A stretch of DNA of 64,000 bases from the NCBI GenBank assembly GCA_046075565.1, contig JBJTQJ010000082.1:32001-96000 (forward strand), written 5' to 3'. The notes beneath the pieces were generated by a model. The model was not told the origin of the DNA, searched no databases, and saw nothing but the letters and a program-made list of their open reading frames with translations. The first letter of the stretch is position 1; each line of letters begins with the position of its first letter. A program made the position numbers and the translations under genes. Source of the DNA: Verrucomicrobiales bacterium (lineage in GTDB: Bacteria; Verrucomicrobiota; Verrucomicrobiia; Verrucomicrobiales; SLCJ01). Of the stretch, positions 11,396 through 54,966 are shown piece by piece.

Positions 11396-11570
11396 GATTG
11401 AAGATCGAAGATTGATGATTTCCGATTTCCTGAAGACCTTGAGACGCCAAGGAGAAGCGCGAAAAGTCGTCAATCCTCCGCGCGGAGCGTGTCCTTGCAT
11501 CGCTCGGCGGTGGCTTGCCCGTTGGAGTTCGGGCTTCAGCCCGTCGTGTGGCTTCAGTGACGACTGACTA
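11396..11570. repeat. Composite dispersed repeat: heptamer-ended element + linker + GTTGGAGTTCGGGCTTCAGCCCG REP
   Basis: Aligns colinearly with 41293-41460; heptamer module also at 15331-15443. Confidence 0.8.
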
Positions 11571-11594
11571 TTGTTGATCCTTGGAACAAAAATG

Positions 11595-11753
11595 AACCAC
11601 AGATTTCACCCTACGCCGCCCTACGGGCTATGAAGGGCAAACGGATAGGCACGGATTTAATGAATTGCGCGGCTGGCACCGCTCATCTTCTGGATGCCCA
11701 ATTCCTCTTTCATATCATCCTCAGTATCTGTGCTTTCCGTGTAATCCGTGGTT
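11595..11753. mobile_element. Gene-less copy of the CACGGAT tandem-ended inverted-repeat element (MITE-like)
   Basis: Left AACCACAGATTTC..ACGGATAGGCACGGAT and right ATCTGTGCTTTCCGTGTAATCCGTGGTT match the ends flanking the GxxExxY gene. Confidence 0.65.
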
Positions 11754-15459: not shown

Positions 15460-15563
15460 GGGTTGGAGTTCGGGCTTTAGCCCGTCTCTTGCCGCGGTGA
15501 CAATGGTCCGACGGGCTAAAGCCCGAACTCCAACAAATTGCCCGCCATCATCACCGACAGGCG
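15460..15563. repeat. REPIN copy 1 (104 bp; 25-bp perfect inverted repeat, 23-nt spacer)
   Basis: GTTGGAGTTCGGGCTTTAGCCCGTC ... GACGGGCTAAAGCCCGAACTCCAAC; identical to 15931-16034. Confidence 0.92.
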
Positions 15564-15930: not shown

Positions 15931-16034
15931 GGGTTGGAGTTCGGGCTTTAGCCCGTCTCTTGCCGCGGTGACAATGGTCCGACGGGCTAAAGCCCGAACT
16001 CCAACAAATTGCCCGCCATCATCACCGACAGGCG
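15931..16034. repeat. REPIN copy 2 (identical 104-bp direct repeat)
   Basis: Base-for-base identical to 15460-15563. Confidence 0.92.
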
Positions 16035-41292: not shown

Positions 41293-41525
41293 GGATTGAA
41301 GATTGACGATTGCCGATTTCTTGAAAAACCGGAGGTGCCAAGGAGAAACACGCAGAAATTCGTCAATCCTCCGTGCGGAGCATGACCCTGCATCGCTCGG
41401 CGATGTCTTCCCCGTTGGAGTTCGGGCTTCAGCCCGCAATGCAGTTTCACTGACCATTGAAGACTGCAAATTGCAGATTTTCGATTTCCTGAAGCCACTG
41501 AATAGCCGAGGAGCAACTCACAGAA
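41293..41525. repeat. Second copy of the composite heptamer-element + REP repeat, followed by a partial further heptamer module
   Basis: Colinear with 11396-11570 (GCATCGCTCGGCG..CCCGTTGGAGTTCGGGCTTCAGCCCG shared). Confidence 0.8.
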
Positions 41526-41548
41526 AATAATAACCTTGAAGGAAAATG

Positions 41549-41679
41549 AACCACGGATAGGCACGGATAAAACACGGATACTCAGAGACCTCGGTGGACT
41601 TGGAGTTCTCACCCGGCGGGCAGGAATCAACTTCTTCATAATCCATTCATAATCCGTGGATTCCGTGTCATCCGTGGTT
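41549..41679. mobile_element. Gene-less CACGGAT tandem-ended inverted-repeat element
   Basis: Left AACCACGGATAGGCACGGATAAAACACGGAT; right ATCCGTGGATTCCGTGTCATCCGTGGTT. Confidence 0.7.
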
Positions 41680-41935
41680 ACCCATTTCCGAGTCCAGCTA
41701 TGCACCCCGCCAAACCCCACCGCGGAGAGCCGGCTGGGACGCCGCTGGCTGGTCGAACGAGTGATATCAGCCACGCACTTCCAACCAAGGCGTCAACTAG
41801 AAATCGGCTGATATAAGCACGACCTAGATGAAATCTCTTTGATTTCCAACGTGTTTTTGTATTCAATGCCGGGAGAATCCCCGCTGGATAGCATTCGGTG
41901 GGATACTACGAATAAATACTGTTCACCTTCTAGCC

Positions 41936-49947: not shown

Positions 49948-51264
49948 ATGGCTTCCGCTGAAAAACAACGCACCCTCGCCCAGCCCTCAAGTCTCACCGG
50001 CACCTCCCTGCACACCGGGGAAAAGGTCACGCTCACCCTGCGGCCGGCGCTCCCGAACCACGGCTTGAAATTCCGCCGGGTGGATTTGCCCGACCAGCCG
50101 TTTATCGCCGCCGATGTCTCGAAGGTCCAGACCGTCGAGCGCGCCACCACCTTGGCCGAGGGCTCGGTGAAGGTCCATACGGTCGAGCATGTGCTCTCCG
50201 CCCTCACCGCCATGGGCGTGGACAATGCCATCATCGAAATGGACGCCAATGAGCCTCCCATCGGCGACGGCAGCGCCCTTCCCTACGTCGAATGCATCAA
50301 AAAAGCCGGCCTGGTCGAACAGGACGAACCGCGATCCGTCTGGGACATCCGCGAACCCATCCACCTCGAGACGAAAACCGACAGCTTGATCACCATCGTG
50401 CCCGACAGCCAATTGCGGGTTTCCTGCACCAATGTCGGCCCCGACGGGCGCATGACCCAATTTTACTCGACGGTGATCACTCCCGAGGTCTACGAGAAGG
50501 AAATCGCGCCCGCGCGGACTTTTGTTTTCTACGAGGATGTAAAGCCGCTTCTCGACAAGGGACTCATCCGCGGCGGCAGCCTAGAAAATGCCGTGGTCGT
50601 GAAAGATGACGCCGTGATGAGCCGCGAGCCCATGCGTTTCAAGGAAGAATTCGCCCGCCACAAGATCCTCGACATCATCGGTGACCTCACCCTCTGCGGA
50701 AAAAGGTTCACCGGTCACGTGATCGCCATCAAACCCGGCCACGGACCCAATACCCAGATGGCCACGACTCTGGCCAAGGAATACGCGCGGATGCGCAGCA
50801 TGATCCCGCCCGTGCGTATCCCGAAAGGCGATGCCGTGCTGGACATCAAGGACATCCTCAAGATTCTGCCGCACCGTTACCCCTTCCTGCTCGTCGATCG
50901 GGTGATCCGTTTCGAAGGAGATACCAAATGTGTCGGCGTGAAGAACGTGACCATGAACGAGCCGTTTTTCCCCGGCCACTTCCCCGGCCATCCGGTCATG
51001 CCGGGTGTGCTCCAGGTCGAGGCCATGGCGCAGGTCGGCAGCATCCTCATGCTCCGCAAACCGGAGAACCAAGGCAAGATCGGTTACTTCATGAGCGCGG
51101 ACAGCGTGAAATTCCGCAAACCCGTTCTGCCCGGCGATACCCTTTTCATCGAAGCCGAGGTTTTGAAAATCCGCGGCAACATCGGTGTCACCATGTGCCG
51201 ATGCCTGGTCAACGATGAAGTCGTTTCCGAGGGTGAATTGAAATTCAGCCTCTTCCAACCGTGA
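49948..51264 (+). CDS. lpxC-fabZ: Bifunctional UDP-3-O-acyl-GlcNAc deacetylase / 3-hydroxyacyl-ACP dehydratase
   Basis: TVEHVLSA, DGSA, ARTF, RHKILD.IGDL (LpxC); LPHRYPFLLVD, GHFP..PVMPGVL.VEAMAQ (FabZ). Confidence 0.97.
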   Translation: MASAEKQRTLAQPSSLTGTSLHTGEKVTLTLRPALPNHGLKFRRVDLPDQPFIAADVSKVQTVERATTLAEGSVKVHTVEHVLSALTAMGVDNAIIEMDANEPPIGDGSALPYVECIKKAGLVEQDEPRSVWDIREPIHLETKTDSLITIVPDSQLRVSCTNVGPDGRMTQFYSTVITPEVYEKEIAPARTFVFYEDVKPLLDKGLIRGGSLENAVVVKDDAVMSREPMRFKEEFARHKILDIIGDLTLCGKRFTGHVIAIKPGHGPNTQMATTLAKEYARMRSMIPPVRIPKGDAVLDIKDILKILPHRYPFLLVDRVIRFEGDTKCVGVKNVTMNEPFFPGHFPGHPVMPGVLQVEAMAQVGSILMLRKPENQGKIGYFMSADSVKFRKPVLPGDTLFIEAEVLKIRGNIGVTMCRCLVNDEVVSEGELKFSLFQP

Positions 51265-52043
51265 GCACCACCATCCACCCGAGCGCCGTCATCCATCCCT
51301 CGGCCGAAATCGGGGAGGATTGTGAGATCGGACCGTATTGCATCATCGGCCCGTCCGTTCAGCTCGGAAACCGCTGCCGACTTGCTTCGCACGTCGTCAT
51401 CGAAGGACCCTGCATCATCGGCGAAAACAACGACTTTTTTCCCAACGCCTGCATCGGCCAACGCACCCAGGACCTCAAATACTCCGGTGAACCAACCGGC
51501 TTGGAAATCGGACACAATAATGTCTTCCGTGAATTTGTGACCGTGCATCGCGCCACCGGAGTCGGTGACCGCACGATCATCGGGAATCATGGCCACTTTC
51601 TCGCCTACGTGCACATCGCCCATGATTGTGTGGTCGGCGACCATGTCATCTTCTCGAACAACGGAACCCTCGCCGGACACGTGATTGTTGAAGACCATGC
51701 CATTCTCGGCGGCTTGACCGCCGTGCACCAGTTTTGCCGCATCGGAAAATTCGCCATCACCGGGGGTTGCTCGAAGATTGTCCAGGACATCCCTCCGTTC
51801 ATCATCGCCGATGGCAACCCTGCTGTTCCACGAGGCGTGAACAAGGTCGGACTCGAACGCCACGGCTTCTCGGCGGATGAACAAAAAACACTCCGCGACG
51901 CATACAAGACGATCTACAGGCGGGACCTTCTGCTTGAAGCCGCCCTCAATGAACTCGAAGGCCGGGAAGATGCCCCCGGCGCCGAACATCTCCGGCACTT
52001 CACCCGCTTCATCCGCGCCAGCCAACGGGGAATTATCCGATAG
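51261..52043 (+). CDS. lpxA: UDP-N-acetylglucosamine acyltransferase
   Basis: Hexapeptide repeats, QDLKY.GE, HIAHDC, LAGHV, VHQFCRIG. Confidence 0.97.
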   Translation: MSTTIHPSAVIHPSAEIGEDCEIGPYCIIGPSVQLGNRCRLASHVVIEGPCIIGENNDFFPNACIGQRTQDLKYSGEPTGLEIGHNNVFREFVTVHRATGVGDRTIIGNHGHFLAYVHIAHDCVVGDHVIFSNNGTLAGHVIVEDHAILGGLTAVHQFCRIGKFAITGGCSKIVQDIPPFIIADGNPAVPRGVNKVGLERHGFSADEQKTLRDAYKTIYRRDLLLEAALNELEGREDAPGAEHLRHFTRFIRASQRGIIR

Positions 52044-52067
52044 CGGAAATCTCCGTGAAGAAAAAGA

Positions 52068-52679
52068 AACCACGGATAGACACGGATTCTTGAGATTTAC
52101 CTTTAGATCTTCTTCGCTCTCTCTTTCGTCCAAGGTTTCGAGCCTGAATCTCACGTTGCAAGACTTCTGACATGCTAGCCAACGACGAACAACTCACGGA
52201 AGTCATTATCGGAGCCGCGATGAAGGTGCTCAACACCCTAAAGCCCGGACTCGACGAGAAGCTCTATGAACGCGCCTTGGTCATCGAACTCACCAAGAAC
52301 GGATACATCTGCGAGGCGCAGCGGGAGTTTAACGTCCGTTATGAAGGCCAACACATCGGCTCGCTCATTCCCGACCTTCTGGTCAACGGCTCGGTTATCG
52401 TGGACACCAAGGTTGTAAGCTGCTTCACGGAAACGCCCTTGGCCCAGATGCTCGGATATCTGAATATCACAGGCCTGAGAACCGCACTTCTTCTGAACTT
52501 CAAACACGCCAAACTTGGCATCAAACGCGTCTCCAACTGAACCCAGAACACCAACCGCCGACATGAATGACCGCGCATCAACCATGAACTCTGGAAGGCG
52601 ATACCGCGGTGTCTCAACCCCCTGCACGCTGCTGACTCCTCCTCTCTTCATCCGTGCCTATCCTTGCCCATCCGTGGTT
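52068..52679. mobile_element. Putative GxxExxY cassette bounded by inverted CACGGAT tandem arrays
   Basis: AACCACGGATAGACACGGAT at 52068 and ATCCGTGCCTATCCTTGCCCATCCGTGGTT at 52650-52679. Confidence 0.65.
52172..52540 (+). CDS. GxxExxY protein (PD-(D/E)XK nuclease-like)
   Basis: IIGAAM.V...L.PGLDEKLYE.AL..EL, PDLLV...VIVDTK, AQ...YL, LLLNF. Confidence 0.93.
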   Translation: MLANDEQLTEVIIGAAMKVLNTLKPGLDEKLYERALVIELTKNGYICEAQREFNVRYEGQHIGSLIPDLLVNGSVIVDTKVVSCFTETPLAQMLGYLNITGLRTALLLNFKHAKLGIKRVSN

Positions 52680-52750
52680 CTTTCCGTTCTGGACATCCTC
52701 ACTTTACCCCGGTAGATCTTCAGCAAGCCCTGATGCATCCTTCTCCTCCC

Positions 52751-54130
52751 ATGCGATTTCCACGGCGCCAACCCTCAGGGCAGGGAAAGTTTTTCCTGAT
52801 AGTTGGGCTAGCCGCCTTGGCGGTCACCGCCGCTATCTTTCTGGGTTATGCCTGGCCAAAATGGTTTCAGAAACCAACTGTGCCGCCGAGCGTCGCCGTG
52901 GCCGCCCCGACCCCTTTGCCAGCGCCGATTGCGGATGATTCCAAGCCAACCCCGACAAATCCAAGCCAACCCGTTGGTTTGGATCCGAAGCCTTCGCCCA
53001 CACCACCCTCCGTTCCTCCGGTGGTCGGACCCGTTCAGCCATCGGTGGCCATGGAAAAACTCGCGGCGGCCTTCCTCGCTGAAGATCCCGCCGCCGTGCG
53101 AGCCGCCCTAGGCACGCGCGTTGTTCCTGAAACAATCATCACAGACCTCGCCAAGCTGTTTTCGACCCACGATCTCGACACTGCCAATGCCGTGAGCCAG
53201 CTGGGTAGTCAGCCAGCCCTCCAGCGTTGGGCCATCTACCTGAAAGAAAACCGTCCGGTCGGTCTTGAGGGTGGGGTTCCGGTGGCAGTCGAGCTGGATT
53301 TCGTCCGTGACGACCGCGGGCAATGGTGGCCGGGGGCGATTAGCCTGCCCGAAGAAACGGCCACCAAGCCACCTGCTGCACCAGAAGCACCTCCCGAGGC
53401 CATCGCGGCCGCTAGCACCGCAGCCAATGCCCTGATTGGCGGAGCCATGGCGGACCTCGTAGCCATGGTTGACCCGGCCCGGTTTCTTCCCGCTCAGGCT
53501 ACCGGCCTCGCCGCCATGCTGCAGGAAGGAGCTTTTGTCCTCAAACCCGACGCCGCCCCCGTGGTCACCCTGGCCGCTCCGGCCCAAGTCTGGCTCACGG
53601 TGCCCGTGGTCAGCACCCAATGGCAGACGGAATCCCGTTTTGGAATCATCCTCAGGAAGACAAGCGAGGGTGACCCTTGGCTGGTCGCCGCCTTGAATGC
53701 CGACAGCCTGCTCGCTGTTACCTCCAACCGGCTCGCCGCCGGCGATTCTGCCACTTCCCTGATCCGCAATCCCGGCCAACCCGACGCCCTCTGCCTCTAT
53801 TTCTCCCCGAATTCCTCCGAGACCGACGAACGCGCCCGGCGGGTCGTTTCCCTCTCCGCCGCCATGCTCAATGCCGATCCCGCGCTGCGCGTAAGCCTGC
53901 TCGGCCACACCGATGCCACGGAGAAAGATGGATTCGAAAAAAAACTCTCCCTAGCACGGGTGGAGTCGGTCGCCAAACTGTTGCTCGAGGCGGGCATCCC
54001 CACCGAGATCATCGAACGCGAAACCCATGGTTCCCAACGTCCGCGCCGCGCCAATTTCCTGCCCGACGGCCAACCGGACCCCCGAGCGCTTTTGCTCAAC
54101 CGGCGCGTGGAATTGATTTTGCGGCGGTAG
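52751..54130 (+). CDS. OmpA-like peptidoglycan-binding domain protein, membrane-anchored
   Basis: N-terminal TM and Pro-rich linker; C-terminal YF..NS, GHTD, LS..R...V, NRRVE. Confidence 0.88.
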   Translation: MRFPRRQPSGQGKFFLIVGLAALAVTAAIFLGYAWPKWFQKPTVPPSVAVAAPTPLPAPIADDSKPTPTNPSQPVGLDPKPSPTPPSVPPVVGPVQPSVAMEKLAAAFLAEDPAAVRAALGTRVVPETIITDLAKLFSTHDLDTANAVSQLGSQPALQRWAIYLKENRPVGLEGGVPVAVELDFVRDDRGQWWPGAISLPEETATKPPAAPEAPPEAIAAASTAANALIGGAMADLVAMVDPARFLPAQATGLAAMLQEGAFVLKPDAAPVVTLAAPAQVWLTVPVVSTQWQTESRFGIILRKTSEGDPWLVAALNADSLLAVTSNRLAAGDSATSLIRNPGQPDALCLYFSPNSSETDERARRVVSLSAAMLNADPALRVSLLGHTDATEKDGFEKKLSLARVESVAKLLLEAGIPTEIIERETHGSQRPRRANFLPDGQPDPRALLLNRRVELILRR

Positions 54131-54309: not shown

Positions 54310-54966
54310 GTGTTCCCCGTGCTCATCGCCCCCTCGCTGCTGGCGGCCGATTTCGGCAGCATCACTGCGGAAATCCAACGCGCCGAAGCCGCGGGCATGG
54401 ACTGGCTGCATCTCGATGTGATGGATGGTCACTTTGTGGACAACATTTCCTTCGGACCGGCCATGGTGGCGGCTTCGAGGAAGGCGTCCTCCTGCTACCT
54501 TGATGTCCATCTCATGATCTCGCGTCCGGATCATTATTTGGAACGCTTCATCGAAGCGGGCTCCGACGGAATCACGGTGCATGTTGAAGCGGATCATGAT
54601 GTGGCAGAAACCCTGCGCCGCATCCGCGCGGCCGGACTCAAGCCCGGACTTGCCCTCAATCCCGCTACACCTCTGGAAGCGGCGGAACCCTATTTGGCCA
54701 GCATTGATTTGTTATTGATCATGACGGTGGTGCCGGGATTCGGCGGCCAGTCCTTTATGCCCGAAACCATGCCGAAACTCGCTGCCGCAGCCAAGGCGCG
54801 GGCAAGCGGAAACCATAGCTTCCGCCTTGAAGTGGACGGCGGCATCCATGAAGGCACGGCTCCCATTGCCCTCGAAAACGGCGCCGACGTGCTCGTCGCC
54901 GGTTCCTCAACCTTCCGCGCCGCCGACATGGCCGCGGTGATCGCTAGGATGCGGACCATGAAATAA
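54310..54966 (+). CDS. rpe: Ribulose-phosphate 3-epimerase
   Basis: IAPSLL.ADF, LHLDVMDGHFV.N, DVHLM, MTV.PGFGGQ, VDGGI, VAGS. Confidence 0.97.
   Translation: MFPVLIAPSLLAADFGSITAEIQRAEAAGMDWLHLDVMDGHFVDNISFGPAMVAASRKASSCYLDVHLMISRPDHYLERFIEAGSDGITVHVEADHDVAETLRRIRAAGLKPGLALNPATPLEAAEPYLASIDLLLIMTVVPGFGGQSFMPETMPKLAAAAKARASGNHSFRLEVDGGIHEGTAPIALENGADVLVAGSSTFRAADMAAVIARMRTMK

Follow-up and report, generated by a model that had tools for sequence, protein, structure and literature searches.

What is the gene of a minimal nuclease-like protein doing between two inverted arrays of a tandemly repeated 7-nt word, 24 bp past the stop codon of lpxA? The question is raised by a 612-bp unit in a 64,000-nt stretch of DNA from a bacterium of the order Verrucomicrobiales (hereafter the window; positions without a contig label refer to it). 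The window lies on contig C82 of an assembly of 3.9 Mb in 129 contigs (GC 0.596), where the unit occupies C82:84068-84679; the closest homologous loci place it among verrucomicrobia of the Luteolibacter/Akkermansiaceae kind. A preliminary description had taken this unit, together with two small units that share its ends and have no gene, for a candidate new mobile system. We found that genes of the GxxExxY family are strongly and generally associated with such paired arrays, from which we infer recognition of the arrays by the encoded protein and mobility of the unit. Our preferred answer, in which we place about even confidence, is that gene and arrays may form a selfish pair of the REPIN/RAYT kind, built on a PD-(D/E)XK nuclease.

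52068..52679, plus strand: gene-bearing unit of 612 bp, read from the sequence and recovered as a paired unit in the genome-wide array scan
52068..52087, plus strand: left arm, AACCACGGAT AGACACGGAT, an AACC terminus followed by two CACGGAT heptads spaced 10 nt
52650..52679, minus strand: right arm, ATCCGTGCCT ATCCTTGCCC ATCCGTGGTT, with the minus-strand heptads CACGGAT, CAAGGAT and CACGGAT, ending in the AACC terminus
52172..52540, plus strand: intact GxxExxY / PDDEXK_3 gene of 122 aa, the sole credible open reading frame (ORF) within the 612-bp unit
41549..41679, no strand assigned: gene-less unit of 131 bp, three CACGGAT heptads, about 70 nt and three inverse heptads, predicted to form one long hairpin
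11595..11753, no strand assigned: gene-less unit of 159 bp with CACAGAT/CACGGAT heptads, its left array broken at about 11610-11641 by a nested insert of about 32 nt that resembles a GTAG-type repetitive extragenic palindromic (REP) sequence

The position of the 612-bp unit past lpxA and its content, the GxxExxY gene alone, were confirmed on the sequence, and so were the two gene-less units with the same ends. The inverted repeat reaches a few purine-rich bases past AACC. The window holds 14 copies of AACCACGGAT with at most one mismatch (4.3 expected) and 23 copies of CACGGAT (11.7 expected), and none of 100 shuffled sequences reached either count.

The protein encoded in the unit

The window protein lies far above the cut-offs of both PF13366, PDDEXK_3 (E = 3.2e-33, 115 bits, cut-off 22) and TIGR04256, GxxExxY (E = 3.6e-35, 120.8 bits, cut-off 35), a large and widely distributed family. 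Its motifs GLDEKLY (E29), IPD (D68), DTK (K80) and QMLGY (Q92, Y96) are intact (residues are numbered as in the conservation alignments), and an alignment of 49 sequences shows G26, Y32 and D68 without exception and E29, K80, H89, Q92 and Y96 almost without exception. These residues correspond to the GxxExxY helix, to the D and the D/E-x-K of the PD-(D/E)XK site and to a QxxxY motif, the last being typical of RecB/Cas4-type nucleases. An AlphaFold model of the protein had a pLDDT of 94.2 and a pTM of 0.86. Foldseek gave weak matches only, the best of them to alkaline exonuclease (E = 1.8e-3), Cas4 SSO0001 and lambda exonuclease, and structural alignment with VIA-align gave Z = 8.1 for Cas4 SSO0001 (root-mean-square deviation 3.3 over 98 residues), 7.8 for BpuSI, 7.7 for SwaI and 7.1 for Hjc. 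These matches of the predicted structure show the common PD-(D/E)XK core and point to no particular subfamily. The profile scores, the catalytic set and the fold of the model thus agree with the earlier assignment of GxxExxY to the PD-(D/E)XK-like proteins, and with the site residues conserved and the model confident, the protein looks like an active nuclease. A sequence search of the PDB found no relevant solved relative, and the protein matched no defence or phage family in PADLOC and PHROGs. The function of PF13366/PDDEXK_3 is entered as 'Unknown' in a table of PMC3424549, the sole functional note on the family in the literature searched.

Association of GxxExxY genes with inverted arrays

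The genome has five PF13366 genes, three of which lie inside paired arrays, each with its own word.

52172-52540 (window): GxxExxY gene, CACGGAT arms
C124:34850-35191: GxxExxY gene, CACAGAT arms
C124:69226-69567: GxxExxY gene, CACGAAT arms
C77: PF13366 gene, one-sided CACGAAA-like hairpin only
C68: PF13366 gene, no arrays

The proteins with CACGGAT and CACAGAT arms are 72% identical, and the protein with CACGAAT arms is 43% identical to the window protein. Beside the gene at C124:69226-69567 we noted GGAGGG-ATG upstream of the left array (C124:69185), in frame through the array into the GxxExxY ORF (MKLEPRMDTNSHE...); the same EPRMDTN-type peptide would be encoded by gene-less units.

We scored the flanks of the genes without presupposing any word, by seeking a 7-mer repeated at least twice at a spacing of 8-13 nt within 400 nt upstream, whose reverse complement is repeated downstream. 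Thirty-four loci of the order were scored, namely 30 returned from 61 genomes of the order and the other four PF13366 genes of this genome. A score of at least 6 was reached at 27 of the 34 and a score of at least 7 at 21, as against one and none, respectively, of 150 random pseudo-genes in this genome. A word-free inverted-repeat score gave a similar contrast, with values of at least 34 at 23 of the 34 GxxExxY loci and at 1 of 150 random sites. GxxExxY genes are therefore enriched for inverted tandem arrays, as the preliminary description had supposed. The words at the other loci of the order are CACGAAA, CACGAAC, CACGGAA, CGCTGAT, CACGGAGG, CGCAGAG, CGCGGAG, CACAAAG, GACAGGAT, CCGCGAAA, CACTAAT and others, the majority of the form C-R-C-N4 following an AACC-like terminus, and the period of the arrays is 8-10 nt (the 7-nt word and a spacer of 1-3 nt). 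Similar proteins share words; for example, loci L033 and L046, from different families of the order, both have CGCTGAT.

The association extends beyond the order. One genome per species was scanned, and from 463 relatives the best 80 homologues, with 65-78% identity, were taken; they come from Verrucomicrobiota, Planctomycetota, Acidobacteriota, Ignavibacteriota, Hydrogenedentes and one metagenome-assembled genome (MAG) of Pseudomonadota. The flank score was at least 6 at 68 and at least 7 at 52 of these 80, and 67 have three or more heptads that fit C[AG]C[AGT]G[AT][TAG], the commonest heptads being CACGGAT (148), CACAGAT (79) and CACGGAA (49). In a protein tree with 70 rows, phyla are interleaved and the word label changes 23 times, compared with a mean of 38 after shuffling, and none of 200 shuffles was as low. 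The predicted co-variation of arrays with protein clade, with different words in different clades, was thus found, and the clustering of the word label on the tree shows that gene and arms travel together.

Like the window unit, 48 of the best 80 homologues have their AACC termini facing outward and the gene placed in the 'loop'; in 18 the polarity is reversed, and the other 14 are unclear. On inspection, the opposite polarity proved to be a gene between two complete small hairpins (L134, L026, L125) or part of complex strings. Among 37 units with clear termini a T-rich run precedes both ends (consensus RRAWTTTT-AACCAC), which is compatible with a TTAA-type target; the outer flank differs in this genome. 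We also observed, in a Luteolibacter MAG contig (L057:968-1200), a 56-aa ORF within its own pair of CACGGAT arrays directly upstream of GxxExxY, in the string A-orfX-A'-GxxExxY-A'-A. It may be a second type of cargo, and it had no match in Pfam. Expanded arrays of 8-14 or more perfect tandem copies of a 9-10-nt unit (CACGGAATG, CACGGATGA, CACAGATGGT) occur at L106 (an Akkermansiaceae MAG), G012:C119:111598-111685 and G036:C46:46446-46531, which shows that array length can grow through slippage-like events.

Genes and arrays also occur together when whole genomes are compared. The pattern CACRRAT-N2-3-CACRRAT-N2-3-CACRRAT was found in 31 of the 61 genomes of the order, and a reversed control pattern in none. 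It was present in 30 of the 44 genomes with PF13366 and in 1 of the 17 without (these are counts over related genomes, which are not independent samples), and the sole PF13366-less genome with the pattern has one match in an 83%-complete assembly. In genus g4, with 13 genomes, G047 alone has GxxExxY genes and alone has arrays (1/1 vs 0/12). Several gene-bearing genomes without CACRRAT arrays, such as G030, G060, G026 and G038, have genes with other words.

Gene-less units in the genome

In the whole genome AACCACGGAT occurs 39 times, about 6 copies being expected from composition. Among 7-mers that recur exactly at 9-11 nt, CACGAAT (38) ranks first and CACGGAT (19) fifth, or second if GC-rich runs and the CACGAAT repeat read in a shifted frame are disregarded; CACAGAT (6) is also among them. 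We counted 167 chains of CACRRAT heptads, of which 104 have an AACC-type start. When plus and minus arrays within 3 kb were paired, these 104 gave 31 paired units and 42 unpaired arrays. The paired units comprise 26 small gene-less ones (121-162 bp), three with a GxxExxY gene and two 'long' pairs. The latter were rejected as cargo units: the pair on C76 (1357 bp) is two gene-less units flanking an rsmH-like gene, and that on C21 (1972 bp) has two half units, unrelated to each other, on either side of ordinary genes. In the genuine paired units longer than 200 bp, GxxExxY is the cargo in three of three and no other cargo was found. By type, 53 arrays are GAAT and 49 GGAT/AGAT, and both arms are of the same type in 28 of the 31 pairs. 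The three pairs with mixed GAAT and GGAT/AGAT arms (C36:3115-3255, C16:811-951, C21:51870-53841) may be chimeric units or neighbouring half units.

All 26 small gene-less units are intergenic by a crude ORF call based on length and third-position GC (GC3): 11 lie in convergent gaps, 10 in co-directional gaps and 1 in a divergent gap, with 4 unassigned. Of the units in co-directional gaps, five had the polarity of the genes and four the opposite one. Such a distribution speaks against the units being promoters and weakly against a function in RNA that depends on the strand. Intergenic placement at gene ends is the distribution known for REP-like repeats.

The preliminary description had called the gene-less units derivatives of the gene-bearing one. 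This part of the proposal was not borne out, since their interiors have no homology to gene-bearing units and the relationship rests on the shared arms and outer flanks. Nor, for the same reason, is an origin of the gene-less units by internal deletion of gene-bearing ones supported.

Conservation and folding of the arms

We parsed 57 of 68 units and compared the left arm with the right arm in reverse complement. The arms agree at 958 of 1197 heptad positions (80%) and at 74 of 170 spacer positions (43.5%), against 37.7% between unrelated units. The spacers are strongly C-poor (174 A, 164 G, 122 T and 19 C; n = 479). Of the mismatches, 55 are G-U-compatible on the sense strand of the gene, 73 on the other strand and 141 are transversions, so that there is no excess of G-U pairs. 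Among 13 gene-less GAAT units the pairwise identity is 88% and 83% in the arms and 55% in the interiors (shuffled baseline 47%, maximum 79%).

Folded as DNA, 41545-41684 gives one long hairpin with the heptads paired and the spacers as internal loops (z = -3.3 on the plus and -3.0 on the minus strand). When 52050-52700 is folded as RNA, the two ends pair in the minimum-free-energy structure and in the centroid alike, and the fold as a whole is no better than those of shuffled sequences (z = -0.26). The idea that pairing of the arms leaves the ORF as a loop is weakly supported: the predicted pairing of the ends agrees with it, and the non-complementary spacers and the lack of a G-U bias speak against it. 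Taken together, conserved heptads, non-complementary spacers and the absence of a G-U bias make a word-reading factor preferable to a selected RNA stem, and by these comparisons selection acts on the words themselves and not on arm-to-arm complementarity. Since different protein clades have different words, even in a single genome, the protein that the unit encodes would be the obvious candidate for the reader.

Similar design around four-helix-bundle genes

The genome has four genes of PF05635 (23S_rRNA_IVP), the four-helix-bundle family of intervening sequences (IVSs) in 23S rRNA. One of them (C118:16671-16976, in the region C118:16590-17040) sits between GACAGAAG-type arrays and their inverse. 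Among 30 PF05635 loci of the order (L148-L176 included), 20, that on C118 among them, have an inverted-repeat score of at least 34, the figure for random sites being 1 of 150, and in 25 of the 30 the arms have a period of 7 (AGTTGAT GGTTGAG..., AGTTCAA AGTTCAA..., AGTAATC AGTAGTC...). The likeness to intervening sequences noticed in the preliminary description gains weight from this parallel design. The two grammars are distinct, PF05635 having a period of 7 with RGT-N4-like words and GxxExxY a period of 8-10 with CRC-N4 words and a spacer. An array grammar for each gene family suggests that the arrays are specific to the protein and argues against a vehicle that both families would share and a single unlinked enzyme would serve. 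None of the three full-length Y1 transposase genes (RAYT/IS200-like, PF01797) of the genome has heptad arrays (flank scores 5, 3 and 3).

A candidate mechanism and the evidence against it

In the scheme that we prefer, the 612-bp unit would be a selfish cassette, a minimal PD-(D/E)XK gene inside inverted arrays of its own cognate word, namely C-R-C-N4 heptads every 8-10 nt ending in AACC, and the dispersed gene-less units would be its non-autonomous partners with the same arms. The protein would read the tandem heptads of both arms, as duplex DNA or as an extruded hairpin or cruciform, and nick or cut at or near them. Host break repair or replication would then copy or maintain the arms, with or without the gene, much as RAYT transposases keep REPIN populations. 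Binding, cleavage and mobility in this scheme are inferred; for mobility, the presumption comes from the patchiness of the gene within a genus, the interleaved phyla and the unrelated neighbourhoods of the homologues.

Several observations weigh against this scheme. A DNA search of 40 relatives yielded no empty lpxA-ompA site but lpxA only (about 70-78% identity) with other genes downstream; these relatives are too distant for an empty-site comparison, synteny being lost, and in L009 the ORF that follows lpxA bears no relation to the OmpA-like gene. Metagenomes scanned with the OmpA-like protein yielded no relative. In four DNA sequencing runs from one study, one of them possibly the source of the assembly, contigs bridge both junctions of the unit and none skips 52068-52679. 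(A 10-nt gap at 41552 in run X3, considered as a strain variant, matches a paralogous copy on C68 and is not a clear variant.) As the preliminary description had stated, no target-site duplication (TSD) is visible at the three window units, nor is any other direct repeat. The 612-bp unit contains no transposase family, so that despite its inverted ends it has neither the TSD nor the transposase of insertion sequences and of miniature inverted-repeat transposable elements. The interiors of the gene-less units are old and diverged (highest pairwise identity 0.79), and compared with gene-bearing loci they match only this genome's own locus L005. With such old interiors, which share nothing with gene-bearing units, recent transposition is not visible. 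Clear paired arrays are missing at 7 of the 34 loci of the order and at two of the five genes of this genome (C77, C68). G020, G058 and G040 are rich in CACRRAT arrays, although their best homologue of the window protein is only 29-34% identical, and the mapping of words to clades is not one-to-one. The non-independence of related genomes bears on the co-occurrence as a whole, and the words would track the protein tree even if gene and arms were simply inherited together. Finally, a nuclease core of 122 aa offers little surface for sequence-specific reading.

On balance, the pairing of an autonomous with non-autonomous elements, as first proposed, stands in part: the tie of gene to arrays, gene-less units with the same ends, the tracking of word with clade and the co-occurrence across genomes agree with it, and the lack of interior homology does not.

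Alternative explanations

The cassette might instead act at the level of RNA, like an IVS: the arms would pair in the transcript, the stem would be cut by RNase III or would protect the mRNA, and the gene would be expressed or released without harm to the lpxA-ompA transcript, the words being merely stem-building and the nuclease activity unrelated to the arms. The setting invites this explanation, because the unit stands between co-directional genes 24 bp past lpxA, its ends pair in the minimum-free-energy and centroid RNA folds, a gene-less unit folds as a single hairpin (z = -3.3), the PF05635 family has the same gene-in-inverted-array design (20/30 loci) and gene-less units are mostly at gene 3' ends (11 convergent, 10 co-directional, 1 divergent). 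The details of the arms fit it poorly, however. The spacers between heptads are not complementary (43.5% vs the background of 37.7%), there is no sense-strand excess of G-U pairs (55 vs 73, with 141 transversions), orientation in co-directional gaps shows no preference (five same, four opposite) and the whole-unit fold does not differ from shuffles (z = -0.26). In Rfam, nothing in the whole window reached the gathering score, and 51900-52900 had no match even with E relaxed to 5. The explanation also leaves unaccounted for the tracking of word with clade across phyla and the absence of arrays from gene-less genomes, and we regard it as unlikely, though the strongest of the alternatives.

If the protein were instead a host-useful nuclease with operator-like sites, the arrays would be autoregulatory or architectural, like iterons, and the gene-less copies regulatory or structural, like REPs and bacterial interspersed mosaic elements (in termination, mRNA stability or nucleoid binding), and not mobile. 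Words better conserved than spacers and interiors are what binding sites would show, and strictly intergenic units favouring gene ends, the fixation of the unit in the sampled population (four DNA runs) and the lack of recent copies all suit such a role. The breadth of the distribution does not: homologues 65-78% identical, with their arms, occur in six phyla at unrelated loci, which suggests transfer as a package and not a conserved host regulon. The gene is also patchy in genus g4 (1/13), its neighbours vary among relatives and the protein matches no defence or phage family, so we consider a host role improbable. Least probable in our view, with only a slight chance of being right, is a generic cassette vehicle in which the arrays are recombination sites of an unlinked enzyme (cf. 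the attC hairpins of integrons) and GxxExxY and four-helix-bundle genes are frequent cargo. It would explain why two unrelated small-gene families have the gene-in-inverted-array layout, why layouts are mixed (hairpin-gene-hairpin at L134 and L026, a second small ORF in its own arrays at L057) and why 3 of the 31 units of the genome are chimeric between word types. Against it stand the distinct grammar of each family (period 7 vs period 8-10), the near absence of CACRRAT arrays without GxxExxY (1/17 genomes), GxxExxY as the sole cargo in this genome (3/3 genuine units longer than 200 bp), the lack of a linked recombinase and the Y1 transposase genes without flanking arrays (0/3).

Relation to known systems

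Compared with what has been described, our preferred scheme appears closest in logic to REPIN/RAYT (the REPtron) and closest in anatomy to the ORF-bearing intervening sequences of rRNA and to the STRR sequences (short, tandemly repeated, repetitive). In REPIN/RAYT systems one genome has several groups of repeats, each linked with an enzyme gene that its repeats flank, and the doublets form hairpins (Bertels and Rainey 2011, PMC3116915); REPs carry a GTAG/CGTC tag at one end (Di Nocera et al. 2013, PMC3733652). The present units resemble them in being short, extragenic, inverted and hairpin-capable, all 26 small paired units being intergenic; in falling into several word groups, each with its own single-copy enzyme gene flanked by the repeats (three genes); and in the large excess of gene-less copies over the gene. 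They differ in that the enzyme is a 122-aa PD-(D/E)XK nuclease and not a Y1 HUH transposase, and the arms are tandem 7-nt words with free spacers and AACC-CAC ends, whereas RAYT arms are a single palindrome with the GTAG/CGTC tag. Moreover, the Y1 genes of the genome are not flanked by heptad arrays, and the interiors of the gene-less copies are old and diverged. The genome also has a distinct REP family of the GTAG type, members of which lie nested within some arrays.

With the IVSs of 23S rRNA, which are removed by RNase III and occur in Leptospira and Coxiella, and with the PF05635 cassettes, the unit shares a small ORF between pairable inverted ends in transcribed DNA. It differs from the former in lying outside rRNA (rRNA was not found in the window, and the unit is not within a 23S rRNA helix) and in carrying a nuclease, not a four-helix bundle, and from the latter in having arrays of period 8-10 with CRC-N4 words instead of 7 nt. 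Transposon ends have multiple inverted subterminal binding sites, and eukaryotic foldback elements, which are much longer than the present units, have arms of tandem sub-repeats. Several short copies of a word, inverted at the two ends, recall both; unlike them, the unit encodes no transposase or integrase and shows no target duplication. A homing endonuclease cuts the empty allele of the site where its gene is inserted; for the window unit no empty allele was found in the relatives, the metagenome scan or the four DNA runs. STRRs of filamentous cyanobacteria are tandem 7-bp intergenic repeats that form hairpins, and their function is called unknown in PMC2670836; an STRR inside the RNase P RNA gene is the subject of a 1997 paper, to judge from its title in the references of PMC2858038. 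The window arrays are like STRRs in having tandem 7-bp words that form hairpins between genes. However, STRRs are contiguous heptamers of heterocyst-forming cyanobacteria, described in these sources as repeats only and with no protein partner, while the window heptads are spaced by 1-3 nt, belong to a verrucomicrobial host and come with an attached gene. Closer to STRRs in appearance are the PF05635 arrays, with their period of 7.

The association of GxxExxY with arrays was not described in the full-text literature searched, which largely excludes subscription journals, and a nuclease with its own DNA repeats is apparently an undescribed selfish partnership. More tentatively, and with somewhat less than even confidence, we suggest that GxxExxY proteins may be the enzymes of a phylum-spanning, nuclease-driven foldback class, each clade reading its own word and thereby keeping or spreading its cassette and a cloud of gene-less hairpins. 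With the four-helix-bundle cassettes, rRNA intervening sequences and STRRs, this class could form one super-class of 'word-array hairpin cassettes', which would give a function to two very large protein families. If the nuclease works on the words that bracket its gene, PF13366/TIGR04256 gains a concrete and testable substrate. On the same condition, many intergenic hairpin repeats, STRR-like ones included, gain a candidate protein partner, and the persistence of selfish repeats in bacterial genomes could be studied in a second enzyme-repeat partnership that does not depend on RAYT/REPIN. The natural word and protein variants, three of them in this genome, would then form a specificity panel and a possible source of small programmable DNA-recognition modules.

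Neighbouring genes and flanking repeats

The unit lies between lpxA and the OmpA-like gene, which are co-directional. A scan for promoters and terminators gave weak consensus matches only. The neighbours, and the outer flank of the gene-less unit at 41549, are as follows.

49948-51264, plus strand: LpxC-FabZ fusion, upstream neighbour
51261-52043, plus strand: LpxA, its stop 24 bp before the unit
from about 52733, plus strand: OmpA-family protein, downstream neighbour
54310-54966, same strand as the unit: ORF that we take to be ribulose-phosphate epimerase
41534..41548, plus strand: outer flank CCTTGAAGGAAAATG, resembling a ribosome-binding site and ATG, common to most gene-less units of all three word types

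Most gene-less units, whatever their word type, have CCTTGAAAGGAAAATGG on one side, which looks like a ribosome-binding site followed by ATG, and TTCAGGTT on the far side, which pairs with the AACCTTGAA part of the opposite flank (examples are 41534-41548 and 11579-11594 in the window, C50:3475-3494 and C123:3996-4015). The REP-like palindrome of about 32 nt, with the core GCCCTGCGGGCTATGAAGGGC and GTAG on the opposite strand, has 24 copies in the genome with at most four mismatches (for example, window 11610-11641, C80:5299, C68:6542 and C13:2862). In 13 cases it is nested in a heptad array, after CAC and before CGGAT/CAGAT, at the second or third heptad position. A second repeat family consists of GTTGGAGTTCGGGCTTYAGCCCG, then about 27 nt and then the inverse of GTTGGAGTTCGGGCTTYAGCCCG, in units of about 73 bp, and gives 40 arm matches genome-wide; in the window it is found at 11521-11543, 41414-41436, 15462-15534 and 15933-16005. 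At six sites a single GTTGGAGTTCGGGCTTYAGCCCG arm and a conserved stretch of about 100-130 nt stand immediately ahead of a heptad unit, suggesting that some gene-less units are parts of larger composite intergenic repeats.

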